Source: Alphaproteobacteria bacterium | GTDB taxonomy: Bacteria; Pseudomonadota; Alphaproteobacteria; Rs-D84 | Assembly: GCA_009777955.1 (NCBI GenBank) | Contig: WRKW01000006.1 | Span: 1,866-65,865, forward strand | DNA length: 64,000 nucleotides | Reading direction: 5' to 3' | Part shown: positions 6,219 through 59,336 of the stretch, one piece after another | Layout: every line of letters starts with the position of its first letter | How positions within the stretch are numbered: the first letter of the stretch is position 1 | The notes under the pieces: generated by a model | The model's database searches: none | Told to the model about the DNA's origin: nothing | The model's input: the letters and a program-made list of their open reading frames with translations, nothing else | Program-made: the position numbers and the translations under genes

Positions 6219-6271
6219 CTGTGCCGGAATGACAATGCTATGGGAACAATTGTATTCCAATTATAACATTT

Positions 6272-6458
6272 CGTGTCATTGCGAGTCACGCCGTCAGGCG
6301 GACGAAGCAATCTTTTATAACGCTTCGTGTCATTGCGAGTGGTCGAAGACCGCGAAGCAATCTTTTCCAACAGGGGAAGTATAATAATTCCATTGCCTGA
6401 AAAGATTGCTTCGTCCGCCTGACGGCGTGACTCGCAATGACATTAAACCGCAATGACA
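6272..6458. repeat. REP-like palindromic array 1 (GTCATTGCGAG..CGAAGCAATC units)
   Basis: Two direct units and one inverted unit flanking a ~30-bp core, directly 3' of the Cys-rich gene. Confidence 0.9.
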
Positions 6459-6575
6459 TTAAAGGCCGAGATCCGCAAACAGCGCCGACCGGAAGTTGGA
6501 AACGGTCTGGGCGGCGTACGCGCAATCGTACGCGCAGCGATACGCGCAAGAGATCGCGCCGAGGTCGCCCCGGAA
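6459..6575 (-). other. DGR-like variable region VR1
   Basis: Differs from the other three copies at codon positions 1-2 of NNC/NNT codons with an invariant TGC GCG scaffold. Confidence 0.75.
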
Positions 6576-6956
6576 AACCCAAGCCGACGAAGCGACACTA
6601 AACCCAGGAATGCTTGTCAGCTTACACCAACAGTTGCTTCCGCTGTCGGCAACAGGGTTACCGATATTGGCATAGCCTCCGCTTGTGCTTGAACACAAAC
6701 TTGTTCCACTGAATTCTGATACATTACTTCCAGTACAGCTTCCTACTTTCCAATCGCCAAGGGATAGGTTGGTGCAATCTTGATCCCAACTTAAACCACC
6801 AGTGCCACTAGCAGGACATTGATTGACACTACTACAACTCGTCGGACTTATGGGTCTTGCCATACACGCAACAGCGGCAATAGACCCATGCAATGGGATT
6901 ATCGTTAATACAGCAAGGATGCTTGTTATCTTTATAGTTTTGTTAAATGTATTCAT
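6459..6956 (-). CDS. Secreted Cys-rich protein, putative DGR target copy 1
   Basis: Signal peptide; CWCK..SSAWVF..CAxxCAxxCA..FRSALF; paralogue of 12480-12971 and 49351-49851. Confidence 0.85.
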   Translation of the reverse strand: MNTFNKTIKITSILAVLTIIPLHGSIAAVACMARPISPTSCSSVNQCPASGTGGLSWDQDCTNLSLGDWKVGSCTGSNVSEFSGTSLCSSTSGGYANIGNPVADSGSNCWCKLTSIPGFSVASSAWVFRGDLGAISCAYRCAYDCAYAAQTVSNFRSALFADLGL

Positions 6957-12083: not shown

Positions 12084-12134
12084 GGGTAAGGCGTGGGTAC
12101 GTGAGTTACGTAAGGCGTAAGGCGTGAGACGTAA
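12084..12134 (+). repeat. Degenerate heptamer tandem repeat (CGTAAGG-like)
   Basis: ggtaaggcgtgggtacgtgagttacgtaaggcgtaaggcgtgagacgtaa. Confidence 0.55.
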
Positions 12135-12135
12135 T

Positions 12136-12479
12136 GTGTCATTGCGAGTGGCCAAAGACCGCGAAGCAATCTTTTCCGGCATTCCGTGTCATTGCGAGTG
12201 GTCAAAGACCACGAAGCAATCTTTTCAAATATTTTGTGTCATTGCGAGTGGTCAAAGACCACGAAGCAATCTTTTCAGATATTTTGTGTCATTGCGAGTG
12301 GTCGAAGACCACGAAGCAATCTTTTCAGGCAAGGGAATTATTATACTTCCCCTGTCGGAAACGATTGCTTCGTCCGCCTGACGGCGTGACTCGCAATGAC
12401 ACGAAATGTCGGAAAAGATTGCTTCGTCCGTCACCGCAAGCGGTGACGCGACTCGCAATGACACCAGACTGCAATGACA
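12136..12479. repeat. REP-like palindromic array 2
   Basis: Four direct units with exact 50-bp period (12136, 12186, 12236, 12286), a core, then two inverted units. Confidence 0.92.
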
Positions 12480-12597
12480 TTAAAGGCCGAGACCCGCAAA
12501 CAGCGCCGACCGGAAGACGGAATGGAGCTGGGCGCGGATCGCGCAATCGCCCGCGCAGTCATACGCGCAATAGGACGGATCGCCGTGGCCGTACGCG
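12480..12597 (-). other. DGR-like variable region VR2
   Basis: NNC/NNT codon-restricted variation relative to other copies. Confidence 0.75.
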
Positions 12598-12971
12598 AAA
12601 ACCCAAGCCGACGAAGCGACACTAAACCCAGGAATGCTTGTAAGCTTACACCAACAGTTACTGCCGCTGTCGGCAACAGGATTACCAAAGTTAGGGTAGC
12701 TTCCAGTAGTATTAGAGCATAGGCTCGTGCCACTGAACTCTGATACATTACTTCCAGTACAGCTTCCTACTCTCCAATTCCCAAGGGATAGATTATTACA
12801 ATCACCATCAATACCAAGGGCGGAACAATAGGTCATGCCATTACTTGGACAACTGCTCGGGCTATTAGGTTTCGGTACGCACGCCACAGCGGCAATAGAC
12901 CCATGTAATGGGATTATCGTTAATACAGCAAGGATGCTTGTTAGCTTTATTGTTTTGTTAAATGTATTCAT
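12480..12971 (-). CDS. Secreted Cys-rich protein, putative DGR target copy 2
   Basis: Same architecture as copy 1; C-terminus AYGHGDPSYCAYDCAGDCAIRAQLHSVFRSALF. Confidence 0.85.
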   Translation of the reverse strand: MNTFNKTIKLTSILAVLTIIPLHGSIAAVACVPKPNSPSSCPSNGMTYCSALGIDGDCNNLSLGNWRVGSCTGSNVSEFSGTSLCSNTTGSYPNFGNPVADSGSNCWCKLTSIPGFSVASSAWVFAYGHGDPSYCAYDCAGDCAIRAQLHSVFRSALFAGLGL

Positions 12972-13049
12972 GATACTCTCTCCTTTGGGTATATTTATAT
13001 TATACCATATTCCATGACAAAGGTCAATTTGTATTTAGTCATGTAAAGT
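12972..13049 (-). promoter_or_regulatory. Conserved cassette promoter, copy 2
   Basis: TTGACC-17nt-TATAAT, AAGGAG. Confidence 0.8.
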
Positions 13050-26928: not shown

Positions 26929-27095
26929 AGAAAGATCCTTCCTTTATAACGTTACAAAACGATTATAACGAGTTTGGAAAAACGACGCAATTAAAAAGTA
27001 TGCCGTTGCAACACGTTATTTTTGTTTGCTTATATGTCATACCGATAATGTGCGCTGTGCGCACGATGCTCTATTCTAAATGAATAATGAATAGC

Positions 27096-27330
27096 GGACG
27101 AAATAATCTTTTCCAACATTTCGTGTCATTGCGAGTGGTCAAAGACCGCGAAGCAATCTTTTCCGGGCATTCCGTGTCATTGCGAGTCACGCCGTCAGGC
27201 GGACGAAGCAATCTTTACAGACGATGGAATTCTTATACTTTCCCTTTTTGGAAAAGATTGCTTCGTCCGTCACCGCAAGCGGTGACGCGACTCGCAATGA
27301 CACCAGACCACAATGACATCAGACCGCCAT
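27096..27330. repeat. REP-like palindromic array 3
   Basis: Degenerate unit, two direct units, core, one inverted unit. Confidence 0.9.
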
Positions 27331-27334
27331 AACA

Positions 27335-27564
27335 TCAAAGGCCGAGAGCCGCAAACAGCGCCGACCGGAAGAAGGAATTGCTCAGGGCGATGCCCACGCA
27401 AGAACCCGCGCAGTAATACGCGCAACCGGACGGATCGCCGTAGTCGACCCCACTGAAAACCCAAGCCAACGAAGCGAAACTAAACCCGGGAATACTTGTT
27501 AGCTTACACCAACAGTTACTGCCACCATCTACAACTGGGTTGCCGATATTGGCATAGCTTCCGC
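27335..27564 (-). pseudogene. 5'-truncated Cys-rich DGR-target copy 3 (VR3 at 27335-27455)
   Basis: GSYANIGNPVVDGGSNCWCKLTSIPGFSFASLAWVFSGVDYGDPSGCAYYCAGSCVGIALSNSFFRSALFAALGL*; homology stops at ~27564, no start or signal peptide. Confidence 0.85.
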
Positions 27565-27756: not shown

Positions 27757-30700
27757 TTAATCCAAGCTTGTCATCACGGTATCACCAAAACAAGCCACTT
27801 TTTGGGTTCCTATATAACAACAGGTCTTGTCTTCCATATCATCACGCCATTTTTGTTCTGCCTCGTCTGCTGCTCTCTCGGCACGGTTCTTCATAATTGC
27901 CATTGTTGTTCCAAAACCAGCAAGTGTGGCAGCAGTGGTATTAATACCCATATTCCAAGCTTGATTATTACCACCCACAGTTTTTGTTATTGTTTCAGAC
28001 TGTTCTCGTAAATTTTGACAAAGTTTTTCCGCAGCTTCTTTTGCTTTACTGTGCTCATCAGTCTTAGGATGTGCCTCTATATTACAACCCGAATCTCTGC
28101 TTATTTCCGAACTAATCTCAAGCCCGGAACTTGGTATTTGGCATACATTATTTCCATCGATAGTAACATTTTTTATTTTACCTATAGCACTTTTAATTTT
28201 ATTAATACAACTATTTGCCACTTCTTTATTTTCGGCTTCTTTATTGTTATTTAATATGCCACTGCGTTTACCTTTGTTGTTTAGGACATGCGTTGTTATT
28301 GCGCCAGCACCACCAGTAAGTGCTGCAACACCTAGTGATGTTAACCACCTTCTGCCCTTTCCATCATCAAGTTCGTTTTTATGTATTCTTTTTGCAATTT
28401 CATTTATTGTATCTTCTGGAATCCAAGAACCACAATCAAATGAATCTCCCACGGCAAAAAATCTTGTGGTACCAGCACTATTGATGGATAGATGCCCACT
28501 GCCTATCGAAGTTCGATCGGACAGTATTTTTTGGATTTCACTATCTGTTGACCGCAGTTCTACAGCTATTGCACAGAAACCATCGCCTGGATCGCGACTT
28601 TCTATAAAACTTGTATTAAGCCCATTTAGCGCGTAGTTCATTCTGTCAAAATTTTTGAAATTGGTGCCCCCCGTATGCTTTACCCATGCATAAGCCAAAT
28701 TTGTACCTGAATTTCCGGACATACAACGATTGAACTCCCTTGTTTTTCTTGCACGGCGTTCTTGCTGTATTGTATCGTTCATTTCACTCAATACATCATT
28801 AAATACTTGTCCTACCGCAATTACACCTTTTTCTATTTCTACTTCGAGTGCAGGATTATTATAAGTTTCGCAAAGCTCATCCTGGCAACTAGGATCAACT
28901 TTTGTTCCACAATCACCTACGATTTTTTTATTATAACCGGCTGTACATTGTAGTTTGTTGTCTACTGATATCTGCTGTTGAACACTTATATGGGGGGCGT
29001 CAACCGCACTTCTCCAAGCATTATCAATAGAATTCGAAGTTCCCCAAGAAGGTGTATTTGATTTTGTCCGAAGCGCTTCTAACACGTCAAAATGATCTTT
29101 GCATATAGGATCATTTGTGACTGTATCATAGCAAAGACCAATAACAATCCCCCGATCCAGAGTTCCATCAGCACGTCTGCTGGTATCTATCACTGCTGGA
29201 ATCCAGTCGTCAACTCCTGTATTAAAGGCACCACCACCAGTATAGCACATGTCATAACCACTGCCACATCTATTTGTTATACAGGATTTAACAGTAGAGC
29301 GACATTGCTGACGAATCCTGTCTATTGAGCCGGCACTGAATGACGACGACAGGCGAGTGTTTAATGAAGCAATGGCTCCTGTCGGATCGCTACCAAGTTT
29401 ACATGGAGCGGTAGTGCAACAAGCGGGGGAAGTACCAGTTGAATTACTGCATTGAAACAAGTTATTGAATACATCCTCTTTATAACTAAATCCATCAAAA
29501 ACTCCATCTGCGTTTACAAACATTTCCACTTCTACAAAACGGCAACTTGGGTCATTACTTATAATTCCTTCACAACCAAGTTTAATTGCTGGACGAGTGC
29601 TAATTCCAGCGATGTCAATAGTGCCACTACTTGCCTGAGCCTGGGCGTAACATGCGGCACCGTTACCTTCGGCACAGCTATTCATTGCACATTGGACAAT
29701 CGTATCACGGCACTGTGCGCGCGCGTTTTCTACTGCTTGAGCAATAAGTTCGTCAATTTTCCTTTCCATGTTTGTTTTATTTTGACCAATAAAACGTTCG
29801 CTGAACACAAGATCAAAAATATCTTCTCTGTTTTCCTGTTTTACAAGATCGGATGGTCTTGGCGGACCGGCATCAGGAAATGTCGTCATATAGCATGCCT
29901 GGCTGGTACCAACGGTGTCTATGCACGCCCGGCTTAAAAAATCTTTGATATGTCTCATATTTATAGGTTCTAGATAACAACCCGGAGAATTAAGATCTTC
30001 GTTAGTCCTGCAATCTTTACCCTCTAATTTTCCGGCAACATCAAATGATGTTCCGGATTTGCAATAATATGGATTCGGAGTGCATGCACGCGCAAAACAC
30101 TGGTCGACCAATTTGTAACATGTTGGTACGGCATTGTTTGCGGCATATAGATTGCCTTCTCTTATCAGGGCGGCAATCCTGCTATTTGATTCATTTTCTA
30201 TCGTTAATTCTGTAAGTGTTTTGCGAGTTTTTCCTTCAAACAGTTTGCGCGCAATTGGTGTCATCACACCATTACAATCGATTTTTTCCGGCTCTTCTTC
30301 CCCCAAATTTGATCCGAATAAACCATTAATTGCATCAATCGGACATGTGGCAAGCACATCTTGGCACATGATTTTATTCTGATTAAATTCTTTGTATTGG
30401 TCGATTCCTGTGCTTTCTGCACAAAGTTCAAAGTGTTCGCCACAGACATCATCTTTTTTTAAACAATCGGTATATCTGGAAATACAACGTGCAGTAGTGG
30501 TGATTTCTGGCATCGGACGATTGCAAGAATATGGGGTGTCTTTTGGCTCATTTACTGGCACCGGAGTTATCCCTATTGTTCTGCCTATGGTTGCGCCGGC
30601 GATAGAACGTCCGCCAACAGAACCCATGGTCGGCGTTGTTGGTAAACGGCGTGGGTCATATATCAGCTGGCTGGCATCAGCCTGAGTCAGGGCATAAGGC

Positions 30701-30759
30701 ACCAGACAAAGGGCAAATAGCACCGCGCGAAACATCGAACCTGATTTTTTTATAATCAT
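27757..30759 (-). CDS. Large (~1000 aa) secreted Cys-rich protein
   Basis: AGGAG RBS, signal peptide, repeated C-x6-C-x4-C-x6/7-C motifs, two Gly/Ala/Thr hydrophobic segments near C-terminus. Confidence 0.8.
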   Translation of the reverse strand: MIIKKSGSMFRAVLFALCLVPYALTQADASQLIYDPRRLPTTPTMGSVGGRSIAGATIGRTIGITPVPVNEPKDTPYSCNRPMPEITTTARCISRYTDCLKKDDVCGEHFELCAESTGIDQYKEFNQNKIMCQDVLATCPIDAINGLFGSNLGEEEPEKIDCNGVMTPIARKLFEGKTRKTLTELTIENESNSRIAALIREGNLYAANNAVPTCYKLVDQCFARACTPNPYYCKSGTSFDVAGKLEGKDCRTNEDLNSPGCYLEPINMRHIKDFLSRACIDTVGTSQACYMTTFPDAGPPRPSDLVKQENREDIFDLVFSERFIGQNKTNMERKIDELIAQAVENARAQCRDTIVQCAMNSCAEGNGAACYAQAQASSGTIDIAGISTRPAIKLGCEGIISNDPSCRFVEVEMFVNADGVFDGFSYKEDVFNNLFQCSNSTGTSPACCTTAPCKLGSDPTGAIASLNTRLSSSFSAGSIDRIRQQCRSTVKSCITNRCGSGYDMCYTGGGAFNTGVDDWIPAVIDTSRRADGTLDRGIVIGLCYDTVTNDPICKDHFDVLEALRTKSNTPSWGTSNSIDNAWRSAVDAPHISVQQQISVDNKLQCTAGYNKKIVGDCGTKVDPSCQDELCETYNNPALEVEIEKGVIAVGQVFNDVLSEMNDTIQQERRARKTREFNRCMSGNSGTNLAYAWVKHTGGTNFKNFDRMNYALNGLNTSFIESRDPGDGFCAIAVELRSTDSEIQKILSDRTSIGSGHLSINSAGTTRFFAVGDSFDCGSWIPEDTINEIAKRIHKNELDDGKGRRWLTSLGVAALTGGAGAITTHVLNNKGKRSGILNNNKEAENKEVANSCINKIKSAIGKIKNVTIDGNNVCQIPSSGLEISSEISRDSGCNIEAHPKTDEHSKAKEAAEKLCQNLREQSETITKTVGGNNQAWNMGINTTAATLAGFGTTMAIMKNRAERAADEAEQKWRDDMEDKTCCYIGTQKVACFGDTVMTSLD

Positions 30760-31103
30760 ATTCTTCTCTCCTGGACTTGTCCCAAAAGCACAATGTGCAA
30801 AAGGAACCCCAAAAATGGCGCATAACATACATTATGTATATTTGCGATTGCGCCAAAACGACCAAAAACCGCTGTTTGGTTCTGGCATGTACATTCCATT
30901 CCATATCATTTTATCATATTCAGGGTTATTGCACAAATGAAAAATAATGAAAAACAAAACAGATATTGAAACCTATTTCTATCGACTCACAATTACATAT
31001 CGTGCTCTTTTTAACAGAAATTTTAGCAATGGGGTGGGTATTACCCGTTCTTTCTGCCACACTTTACAACCAAACTGGTGCACTTCAAATCATAATCCAC
31101 AAC

Positions 31104-48947: not shown

Positions 48948-49350
48948 GTGTCATTGCGAGTCGCGTCATCGCATTAGTGTCATTGCGAGTGGTCGAAGAC
49001 CGCGAAGCAATCTTTTCCAAACATTCCGTGTCATTGCGAGTCGCGGCACCGCTTGCTGTGACGGACGAAGCAATCTTTTCCAAACATTCCGTGTCATTGC
49101 GAGTGGTCAAAGACCGCGAAGCAATCTCTCCAAACATTCCGTGTCATTGCGAGTCGCAGCACCGCAAGCAGTGACGGACGAAGCAATCTTTTCCAGCATT
49201 TCGTGTCATTGCGAGTGGTCGAAGACCGCGAAGCAATCTTTTTCAAGCAGGGAAGTATAATAATTCCATTACCTGAAAAGATTGCTTCGTCCGCCTGACG
49301 GCGTGACTCGCAATGACACCAGACCAGAATGACATCAGACCGTCATAACA
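48948..49350. repeat. REP-like palindromic array 4
   Basis: One truncated plus five direct units alternating short and long hairpin types, core, one inverted unit. Confidence 0.92.
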
Positions 49351-49474
49351 TCAAAGGCCGAGACCCGCAAACAGCGCCGACCGGAAGTCGTCACCGGAAT
49401 CGGACTGGGCGAAGTTCGCGCAATCGTACGCGCAGCGATACGCGCAATTGGACGGAACGCTGCCGTCGAGCACG
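49351..49474 (-). other. DGR-like variable region VR4
   Basis: NNC/NNT-restricted variation plus a two-codon insertion. Confidence 0.75.
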
Positions 49475-49851
49475 AAAACCCAAGCCGACGAAGCGACACT
49501 AAACCCAGGAATGCTTGTTAGCTTACACCAACAGTATCTACCGCTGTCGGCAACAGGGTTACCAAAGTTAAGGTATGTTCCGCTTGTGCTTGAACACAGG
49601 CTTGCGCCACTGAATTCTGATACATTACTTCCGGTACAGTTTGTTAATTTCCAATCCCCAAGGGATAGGTTATTACAATCATTACTATAACCACCCGTAC
49701 CAAGGGCGGAACAATAGGTGTAACTACCGCAACCTGTTGGGCTATTAGGTTTCGGCACACACGCAACAGCGGCAACAGAATCATGTAATGGGATTATCGT
49801 TAATACTGCAAGGATGCTTGTTAGCTTTATTGTTTTGTTAAATGTATTCAT
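49351..49851 (-). CDS. Secreted Cys-rich protein, putative DGR target copy 4
   Basis: Same architecture; C-terminus VLDGSVPSNCAYRCAYDCANFAQSDSGDDFRSALF. Confidence 0.85.
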   Translation of the reverse strand: MNTFNKTIKLTSILAVLTIIPLHDSVAAVACVPKPNSPTGCGSYTYCSALGTGGYSNDCNNLSLGDWKLTNCTGSNVSEFSGASLCSSTSGTYLNFGNPVADSGRYCWCKLTSIPGFSVASSAWVFVLDGSVPSNCAYRCAYDCANFAQSDSGDDFRSALFAGLGL

Positions 49852-58745: not shown

Positions 58746-59336
58746 ATGAAAAAGTTTTTAGTGACTTGTTTTGTGATGTGTATGCTGTCAATTCCAGGCC
58801 ACGCAGTGTTTCGATGTGTGGACAATAGAAATCCTGGTAATTGCACTAATATAGGATCCAATCTTTGGAGAGCGCATGGTTGTGCAACACCAGGAGCGTC
58901 GGAATTTTTTGGAACTTTTCGGTGTTCAGATACACCGGGAACTATGGGTACAAAAGGAACCCCAAGTAATACAGGGGGGGCACATTGTTGGTGCAACCTT
59001 ACAAGAACTCCTAATGGCGGATGGGTATATGCGGATGTTTCTGCTGGAACCGCTCCCGCCAATCTGGTAGCGCCTGCACCGCCTGCTTCCGCCGGGAGTT
59101 TTGAAAATTTACCACCAAATGAAGAGTGTAGTACGCTAGTGAATACCGCTAATTCACGATTAGCTGCCGCCAGAACAGAAATAGACAAAATAGAGCCTGC
59201 CATTGCTACGATAAATGGTGCAGATACACTGATCAAGGCACAAGCTGCTGAAATAAATTGTCTGAAAAAATGTTCAGAGGCCTGTGCAAATGCTGCCAGA
59301 AACGCGGGTAGTTTTCGTAACGGATTATGGCAATAA
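58746..59336 (+). CDS. Secreted Cys-rich protein, diverged paralogue of the DGR-target family
   Basis: SEFFGTFRCSDTPG..HCWC..GGWVY..CLKKCSEACANAARNAGSFRNGLW parallels SEFSGTSLCS..CWC..WVF..CAxxCAxxCA..FRSAL. Confidence 0.8.
   Translation: MKKFLVTCFVMCMLSIPGHAVFRCVDNRNPGNCTNIGSNLWRAHGCATPGASEFFGTFRCSDTPGTMGTKGTPSNTGGAHCWCNLTRTPNGGWVYADVSAGTAPANLVAPAPPASAGSFENLPPNEECSTLVNTANSRLAAARTEIDKIEPAIATINGADTLIKAQAAEINCLKKCSEACANAARNAGSFRNGLWQ

Follow-up and report, generated by a model that had tools for sequence, protein, structure and literature searches.

The window, that is, the whole 64,000-nt stretch of DNA analysed here (G000:C6:1866-65865, G000 being the source genome and C6 one of its contigs), belonged to an assembly of 1,019,126 bases in 14 contigs that was 98.6% complete. 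The host was related to Candidatus Enterousia, whose members are gut Alphaproteobacteria and have genomes of about 0.9 Mb; its EF-P shared 79% to 85% identity with that of metagenome-assembled genomes. The gene under study, located at nt 12480–12971 of the window on the minus strand (stop codon at 12480–12482), encoded a putatively exported cysteine-rich protein of 163 aa and was a target of a diversity-generating retroelement (DGR), having near its 3′-end a variable region (VR) that corresponded to a template repeat (TR) elsewhere in the genome. DGRs are a known kind of system, and it is the target scaffold that, to judge from a structural model, appears to be new. Positions without a prefix are those of the window; all others are given as genome, contig and nucleotides.

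The target gene and its product

An earlier note on this stretch, made from the sequence alone, had described proteins of about 165 aa with a signal peptide and about ten cysteines. The gene product, read from the list of open reading frames (ORFs) and the sequence, agreed well with this description: its 163 residues included 11 Cys, at positions 31, 41, 49, 58, 71, 85, 106, 108, 135, 139, and 143. The motifs named in that note, CWC (residues 106–108), WVF (123–125), and CAxxCAxxCA (135–144), were all present, and the protein ended with a conserved tail, FRSALFAGLGL.

The N-terminus was signal-like, with a Lys-rich start, hydrophobic residues at positions 11–22, and A-V-A at 28–30. The signal peptide was thus placed at residues 1–30 (nt 12882–12971, minus strand), A-V-A standing before Cys31, with an inferred cleavage site. 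In relatives the same AxA was followed by 1 to 3 hydrophobic residues and then by Cys, so that an equivalent of Cys31 (nt 12879–12881) was observed in many family members. A lipoprotein signal was considered and judged unlikely, the residues before Cys31 fitting the pattern of AxA plus 1 to 3 hydrophobic residues and forming no lipobox. The mature protein of about 133 residues would be exported via the Sec pathway and signal peptidase I, and it is probably oxidised in the periplasm with the help of a DsbA-family protein, a gene for which was located at G000:C5:52287-52802 on the plus strand; DsbB and VKOR were not found in the genome with Pfam models.

Upstream of the gene, about 28 nt from its ATG, there was a sigma-70-type promoter-like site (nt 12999–13027, minus strand) composed of TTGACC, a 17-nt spacer, and TATAAT, with a TG before the second hexamer and 11 of 12 matches to the consensus. 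This upstream region was repeated along with the copies of the gene.

Template repeat and adenine-specific substitutions

The complete TR, a short copy outside any gene with Asn codons at the variable positions, was located at G000:C5:69786-69926 on the minus strand. Alignment by blastn placed it on positions 350–490 of the target gene, thereby defining a TR-homologous segment of 141 nt (nt 12482–12622, minus strand; residues 118–163), the stretch replaced by retrohoming. Within this segment, the TR sequence and the entropy among paralogs delimited the VR proper to codons 126–152 of 163 (nt 12516–12596, minus strand). Two further TR copies were present, one lacking 12 nt and altered at its 3′-end (G000:C13:156-272, plus strand) and one truncated after about 58 nt (G000:C3:43373-43430, plus strand). 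Upstream of all three lay a common spacer of about 150 nt containing runs of G/C, which itself followed a target gene.

The variable codons of the TR numbered 16, namely 11 AAC or AAT, one ATG, three GAY, and one CAG, which by arithmetic allow a theoretical repertoire of 15^11 × 3 × 4^3 × 4, or about 7e15 peptides. Cys and Ala codons contain no A and are never altered.

The target gene had many paralogs. A six-frame scan of the genome detected 25 ORFs with the family N-terminus, 21 of them complete (163 to 170 aa) and four running off contig ends, and 36 matches were obtained by blastn with the target gene. The VR-coding 3′ part was found at 25 loci: 21 intact genes, three genes cut at contig ends, and one fragment in the window. 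Three intact copies lay in the window, as had been noted earlier, namely the target gene and the genes at nt 6459–6956 (165 aa) and 49351–49851 (166 aa), both on the minus strand.

Of the 25 VR-bearing loci, 24 were aligned with the TR, the copy at the start of contig C9 being left out. Mismatches fell on 391 of 645 TR adenines (61%), versus 77 of 980 C (8%), 72 of 933 G (8%), and 35 of 811 T (4%). The target gene differed from the TR at 18 positions, 17 of them at A and one at T; the paralog at nt 6459–6956 had 18 mismatches at A and five at other bases, and that at nt 49351–49851 had 16 at A and one at G in addition to a 6-nt insertion. VRs that differ from the TR almost solely at A, as in the target gene, suggest recent homing. 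Other VRs, for example those of the copies on C12, C10, and C1, contained many non-A changes or indels, and the copies therefore seem to differ in how recently they were rewritten.

Column entropy calculated for 21 paralogs showed the same partition of the protein, the mean being 1.96 bits for VR codons 126–152 versus 0.53 bits for core residues 59–125 and 0.16 bits for the signal peptide, with invariant Cys and Ala flanking the variable residues. This upheld the earlier reading that the variable residues sit between fixed cysteines of the CAxxCAxxCA motif. The N-terminal Cys loop (residues 31–58) ranked second with 1.03 bits and carried indels, which confirmed the earlier suggestion of a second, non-DGR layer of variation. 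Judged from the alignment, ordinary paralog divergence with indels, or recombination, may be its cause, and the loop may supply a second variable loop.

Intact cassettes in relatives and range of the domain

Two genomes of the same family, G002 and G080, had intact cassettes. In each, a TR carrying Asn codons was accompanied by a small ORF (about 100 aa) and by the gene for a DGR reverse transcriptase (RT) of 337 or 341 aa. Both RTs matched RVT_1 and contained IGNLxSQ and YCDDF. In G080, five target genes with the same domain as that studied here differed from the TR at 79 of 130 A, 23 of 216 C, 23 of 198 G, and 15 of 166 T, so the same domain is diversified beside an intact TR-RT cassette in a relative. 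The ORF between TR and RT was conserved (L047:2289-2588, minus strand, in G002; L046:442-768, plus strand, in G080) and matched no Pfam family; lying at the place expected for an accessory gene, it may encode an undescribed DGR accessory protein.

These cassettes bear on whether a retroelement was involved at all. Ordinary divergence or recombination among paralogs could be thought to have produced the variation, since the N-terminal loop, which lies outside the TR region, also varies and carries indels, and a DGR RT was not found in the present assembly (see below). Such an origin is extremely improbable, given the existence of a TR with Asn codons, the mismatch of 61% of its adenines versus 4% to 8% of its other bases, and the recurrence of this pattern beside intact RTs in relatives. 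The earlier premise of a DGR was confirmed by the TR with its AAC/AAT at the variable codons and by the adenine-specific mismatches.

A survey of taxonomic range with a profile, as the earlier note had proposed, was carried out at two levels. Within the family sample, the paralog profile (E up to 1e-3) matched 59 of 101 genomes, including G000, from 10 of 18 genera, with up to 19 matches per genome. In a class-wide sample of 301 genomes (E up to 1e-5), only three genomes of the own family matched, and none of the 298 from other families did. A word-indexed search of 5.8 billion proteins returned 25 close relatives, 23 of them encoded in this genome, and a profile search of 1.84 billion representatives returned 672 proteins with E up to 1e-3, 81 up to 1e-10, and five up to 1e-30. 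A pattern search built on alignment A3 gave 59 matches, none of which was confirmed.

The domain, of about 100 to 120 residues, also occurred in tandem, in up to seven stretches, and was found at both internal and terminal positions in proteins as long as 6218 aa. Listeria-Bacteroides (Flg_new) surface repeats were present in four of the six multidomain members scanned. Three large proteins, P0031, P0035, and P0050 (2382 to 6218 aa), contained the domain five to seven times each, and P0035 had in addition 10 Flg_new repeats.

A homolog of the DGR RT (E up to 1e-15) was detected in 28 of 100 family genomes and in none of the four others of the own genus. The domain was carried by 23 of the 28 RT-positive and 35 of the 72 RT-negative genomes, counts that carry no statistical claim, the genomes being related and thus not independent. 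Among those with no detectable DGR RT, G017, G072, G076, G043, G025, and others had 9 to 18 domain matches each. From this distribution, together with RT fragments in G095, G019, and G034, it seems that the RT is gained and lost frequently and that the domain outlives it.

Predicted fold and the variable face

Structure prediction was performed with AlphaFold2 (AF2) on alignment A4, which comprised 63 sequences (26% to 75% identity to the query): the mature protein, nine paralogs, and 53 single-domain homologs. The best model had a mean predicted local distance difference test score (pLDDT) of 96.3 and a predicted template modelling score (pTM) of 0.89; the five models ranged from 95.4 to 96.3, and 128 of 133 residues had a pLDDT of at least 90.

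The elements were ordered as five strands followed by two C-terminal helices. In mature numbering, to which 30 is added for the full-length protein, the strands spanned residues 16–19, 35–38, 49–56, 75–83, and 93–98, and the helices 102–119 and 121–129. Predicted strand 3 contained the Cys of "...LCS"; predicted strand 4 (full-length residues 105–113; nt 12633–12659, minus strand) contained the CWC with Cys106 and Cys108; and predicted strand 5 contained WVF and the first variable residues. Predicted helix 1 (full-length residues 132–149; nt 12525–12578, minus strand) was formed by the CAxxCAxxCA segment and held Cys135, Cys139, and Cys143, the Ala positions, and the variable face, and helix 2 was formed by the FRSALF tail. 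In the model, the VR occupied the end of strand 5, the loop after it, and one sector of the CxxxCxxxC helix.

Six core cysteines (85, 106, 108, 135, 139, and 143) were all retained in 233 of 259 domain instances, Cys106 being present in 249 and Cys108 in 253. The spacing of the three helix cysteines at i, i+4, and i+8, together with this retention, fits the disulfide-stapled helix that the earlier note had pictured, as far as the predicted structure goes. The three cysteines of helix 1 probably form bonds with the three conserved sheet cysteines, of which strand 3 holds one and the CxC of strand 4 the other two.

On a helical wheel, the cysteines occupied 0 to 80 degrees, the alanines 100 to 180 degrees, and the variable residues 200 to 340 degrees, with one more at 20 degrees. 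The entropy moment of the helix was 0.41, a value reached by 69 of 20,000 shuffles. This one-sided variability fits an arrangement in which the Cys/Ala side lies on the sheet and the opposite side is rewritten. Clustering of the variable residues on one face, which had been put forward as a check, is thus suggested by the wheel.

Proposed mechanism and its significance

The whole reading, in which some 25 paralogous DGR targets share a disulfide-stapled scaffold unlike lectin or Ig (immunoglobulin) folds and carry a VR written by a retroelement, is held with good confidence. Each target gene would be expressed from its own strong promoter-like site, and its product, supplied with a signal peptide, would be exported and then oxidised in the periplasm, for which the DsbA-family gene is available. 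The TR spans the last 46 codons of the target gene, and adenine-specific errors in reverse transcription would rewrite the 16 codons listed above (11 AAY, one ATG, three GAY, and one CAG). The rewritten residues would lie, in the model, at the end of strand 5, in the next loop, and in the helix sector opposite the Cys and Ala positions, so that a rigid disulfide-locked core might display a small hypervariable binding surface. Putative ligands would be found outside the cell, on host, partner-cell, or phage surfaces. This role in ligand binding, which like the exposure of the variable face is inferred, would be in line with the surface proteins that have Flg_new repeats and carry the same domain.

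We lean towards a further, more specific claim, namely that this is the first DGR display scaffold outside the C-type lectin fold. The domain would have no detectable relative in the PDB; one face of its helix would be randomised, and three disulfides would staple this helix to a small beta-sheet. It would be used family-wide in gut Alphaproteobacteria with reduced genomes, as stand-alone secreted domains (about 25 per 1-Mb genome here), in arrays of tandem copies, and as the tip of giant surface proteins.

If true, this would overturn the view that lectin folds alone tolerate variation on the scale of DGRs, and a second scaffold would show that DGR mutagenesis is not tied to one fold. It would be a very small display module of about 100 to 130 residues, disulfide-locked and partly helical, and thus a candidate natural library of binders. 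It would also indicate that uncultured gut Alphaproteobacteria with 1-Mb genomes invest heavily in variable secreted binders. The domain without an RT, as in the 35 RT-negative genomes, raises the question of how repertoires persist after loss of the diversifier.

Reverse transcriptase and state of the element

Several observations weigh against the reading proposed above; they concern the RT, which is considered first, then the structural model, and then the comparison with known folds. A DGR RT was not found in any of the 14 contigs with RVT_1 at E up to 10 or by tblastn with the RTs of relatives. The sole match of tblastn searches with the DGR RTs of two relatives was a remnant, about 42 residues long, adjoining the truncated TR on C3, and there was no RT beside any of the three TR copies. 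The neighbours of the TR were a converging M23-like gene on C5, an unrelated reverse ORF and the gene for GAPDH on C13, and gyrB on C3. With no RT at any TR copy, diversification in this strain may be historical.

The sole RT of the assembly was classified by PADLOC as RT_UG13b (E 1e-117; 461 aa; G000:C2:198859-201252, locus L013:10-2403). As a candidate diversifier it was rejected, for it is of a defence-type class, has an adjoining PDC-S01-type gene, and has no TR nearby.

The remnant on C3 was fused to the truncated TR (G000:C3:43373-43556). Its translation of 51 aa aligned with residues 274–315 of the RT of G002 (pairwise E 2e-6, 38% identity) and with residues 299–311 of that of G080 (E 0.004). 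From its sequence, the C3 copy is read as the outcome of a deletion that would have removed the small ORF together with the 3′ half of the TR and the greater part of the RT. The DGR RT of this strain is missing from the assembly and probably deleted.

Whether the element still acts in this strain is a matter of its activity and leaves the scaffold untouched. One possibility is that the DGR is dead, its RT having been deleted, and that the approximately 25 genes form a frozen multigene repertoire of different binders, comparable to other families of variable surface proteins. In its favour are the absence of a DGR RT from an assembly 98.6% complete, the C-terminal RT remnant fused to the truncated TR on C3, the lack of room for an RT at the two other TR copies, and the many non-A changes and indels in the VRs on C12, C10, and C1. 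The relatives add that none of the four other genomes of the genus has the RT, that the domain is retained in RT-negative family genomes, some of them 99% complete in seven contigs, and that RT fragments occur in the three genomes named above. Against it stand one complete TR with intact AAY codons, the several VRs that differ from the TR almost solely at A (17 of 18 mismatches in the target gene), and the ease with which a repeat-flanked contig carrying the RT is lost from an assembly. Such a contig could have remained unassembled because 10 of the 28 contig ends terminate in a family copy or a TR copy. A frozen repertoire is therefore given an even chance, and the odds that the element is still functional in this strain are likewise about even.

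Reliability of the structural model

Regarding the model, the fold is a predicted one, and the exposure of the variable face and the disulfide pairs are likewise putative. AF2 run on the 21 paralogs alone yielded a pLDDT of 44, which was unusable. The number of cysteines in the mature protein was odd, 11 here and 9 in the family member P0030; the Cys31-type residue may be free, engaged in an intermolecular bond, or modified. Joint losses gave little guidance to the pairing, since Cys108 and Cys143 were lost together in two instances, a sparse count, and Cys85 and Cys106 were jointly missing in four instances from two proteins, which fits the pairing poorly.

A wrong or overconfident model, leaving the fold open, would account for the collapse of pLDDT with the paralog-only alignment. 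The good model is based on 63 sequences picked from one HMM (hidden Markov model) search, and small disulfide-rich domains are hard cases. Such an error is nonetheless unlikely in view of the agreement of the five models (95.4 to 96.3), the pTM of 0.89, and the 128 residues at or above a pLDDT of 90, and because the predicted helices and strands fall where the conserved spacing of CxxxCxxxC and CxC and the one-sided variability would place them.

Other features of the window

Two further members of the family were present in the window. A 5′-truncated copy at about nt 27337–27562 (minus strand) comprised the last 75 codons, a VR-bearing pseudogene fragment with 17 mismatches to the TR at A and seven at other bases. 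It was adjoined by an ORF of 1023 aa (nt 27757–30828, minus strand), the sole match of which was weak and below threshold, to TcpF (E 0.005). A divergent paralog of 196 aa (nt 58746–59336, plus strand) matched the profile with an E of 2.5e-10; its product was putatively exported and shared the same first half (CS..., CWC, WVY), followed by an insert of about 65 residues and then by CxxxCxxxC...FR. As no TR with Asn codons was seen to correspond to it, it was called non-diversified.

Imperfect palindromic repeats of about 50 nt (GTGTCATTGCGAGT...CGAAGCAATC) formed dense arrays downstream of 14 of the 21 target genes. In the window the arrays were located at nt 6266–6447, 12133–12464, 27072–27319, and 48974–49335, and they also occurred genome-wide, with more than 200 blastn matches to the repeat at some contig ends. 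The repeat was considered as a DGR target hairpin and rejected: it was absent after some VRs with near-pure A-site differences, such as that at C5:14788, and is therefore not required.

Comparison with known folds

The earlier note had held that the scaffold is neither a C-type lectin nor an Ig fold and had proposed structure prediction with Foldseek as the check. No similarity to any solved fold was detected with the model (pLDDT 96.3), and there was no confident match to C-type-lectin or Ig targets, so that the claim stands at the level of a predicted structure. The best Foldseek E values were 1.1 against PDB and 1.7 against BFVD, and the ESM Atlas gave no usable match; a blank structure search of this kind does not prove a new fold. 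A profile search of PDB sequences gave no match at E up to 10, and neither Pfam nor NCBIfam assigned the target protein to a family. When the 63 members were searched against Pfam at E up to 10, 15 families were hit, each by one member, and none was lectin-type. Alignment by hhalign with 14 Lcl_C/DUF1566 domains gave a probability of 0.23% (E 0.26), and Lcl_C had no match in the own genome.

In the C-type lectin fold, two helices lie between the first and the later strands, and the VR is carried by strands and loops. Here the model placed both helices after the five strands and most of the VR on a helix, which suits neither the lectin fold nor an Ig sandwich, and no sequence or profile match linked the domain to a lectin-type family. 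With respect to the Ig fold, no Ig chain was among the matches listed, and the helices of the model spanned 27 of 133 residues. In the CS-alpha-beta motif of defensins and scorpion toxins, a CxxxC on a helix is disulfide-bonded to a CxC on a strand. The spacing and predicted placement of these motifs were the same here, a likeness that may be taken as an analogy of principle and not as membership: the order of elements differs, the CxC strand preceding the helix, the helix has a third Cys, the domain is about three times larger, and no defensin appeared in the fold searches. The scaffold thus shows, as modelled, no detectable relation to C-type lectin or Ig folds.

It might still be a very divergent, miniaturised C-type lectin of the CLec2/DUF1566 type. 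According to the accessible text of Roux et al. (2021; PMC8144416), the VR domain of the rare Ig-linked DGR targets is probably a non-Ig one that is still uncharacterised, and further VR domains of uncharacterised type are expected to be new C-Lec variants; in the portion available of another report (PMC10743442), AF2 resolved targets described as "lectin plus Ig domains" as C-lec with a hypermutated hairpin where models of low quality had missed it. Many DUF1566 targets, as far as the excerpt of PMC5758913 describes them, are likewise short and exported with a C-terminal VR. The best, non-significant hhalign stretch, which also counts against the proposal of a new scaffold, paired the CWC strand...WVF with YWSS...AW.v.f of DUF1566, so that a very remote link to the lectin hairpin is conceivable. 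A hidden lectin fold is improbable all the same, in view of the hhalign probability of just 0.23%, the absence of any lectin-type Pfam match among the 63 members, and an element order and VR placement that differ from those of lectins.

Comparison with known DGRs and other variable protein families

No literature on DGRs in connection with Enterousia was found. Nor was a Cys-rich or helical VR scaffold described in the titles and abstract openings retrieved, it being possible that supplementary catalogues of targets hold the family. The target classes given in the available part of Wu et al. (2018; PMC5758913) were Mtd, FGE-sulfatase, DUF1566-type, tentative Ig, and uncategorised, and the maximum numbers of targets reported there were eight in tandem and seven non-adjacent. 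In the accessible sections of PMC10907252, nine loci and 15 targets were described in one "multicellular" bacterium, Thiohalocapsa PB-PSB1.

Variable proteins with the C-type lectin fold include Mtd of Bordetella phage BPP-1, TvpA of Treponema denticola, LdtA of Legionella, AvpA, and TaqVP, as stated in the parts consulted of PMC11661182 and PMC8144416. The target studied here resembles them in its C-terminal VR, AAY-coded in the TR, in the adenine-specific mutagenesis, in structural residues coded without A, in being a small exported or surface protein, and in the service of remote targets by one TR. It differs from them in that no sequence, profile, or structural similarity was detected, that the VR would be mostly on a predicted alpha-helix and the preceding strand end, and that the scaffold is held by conserved cysteines, probably through three helix-to-sheet disulfides. 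With short DUF1566/Lcl_C (CLec2) targets, of which Legionella LdtA is an example in the excerpt of PMC5758913, it has in common a short, exported, single-domain protein with a C-terminal VR, and two neighbouring strands show a weak local resemblance (YWSS...AW.v.f versus CWC...AWVF). Unlike those targets, its C-terminal half is predicted to be helical and Cys-stapled, with no strand returning to the N-terminus.

Many remote targets, incomplete loci, and action in trans were also features of the multi-target DGRs of Treponema (seven non-adjacent targets; PMC5758913) and Thiohalocapsa PB-PSB1 (PMC10907252), so far as the available text of these sources goes. The present system differs in having 25 VR loci, including 21 intact genes, and one TR family in 1.02 Mb, and its targets are stand-alone small secreted domains, whereas theirs are lectin domains on large sensor proteins. 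The family resembles the vsp and vlp families of Mycoplasma, in which a reduced genome likewise holds numerous paralogs for a small exported protein, every one of them under a promoter of its own. The source of diversity is different, being written here from a retroelement template and generated there by repeat slippage or site-specific inversion.

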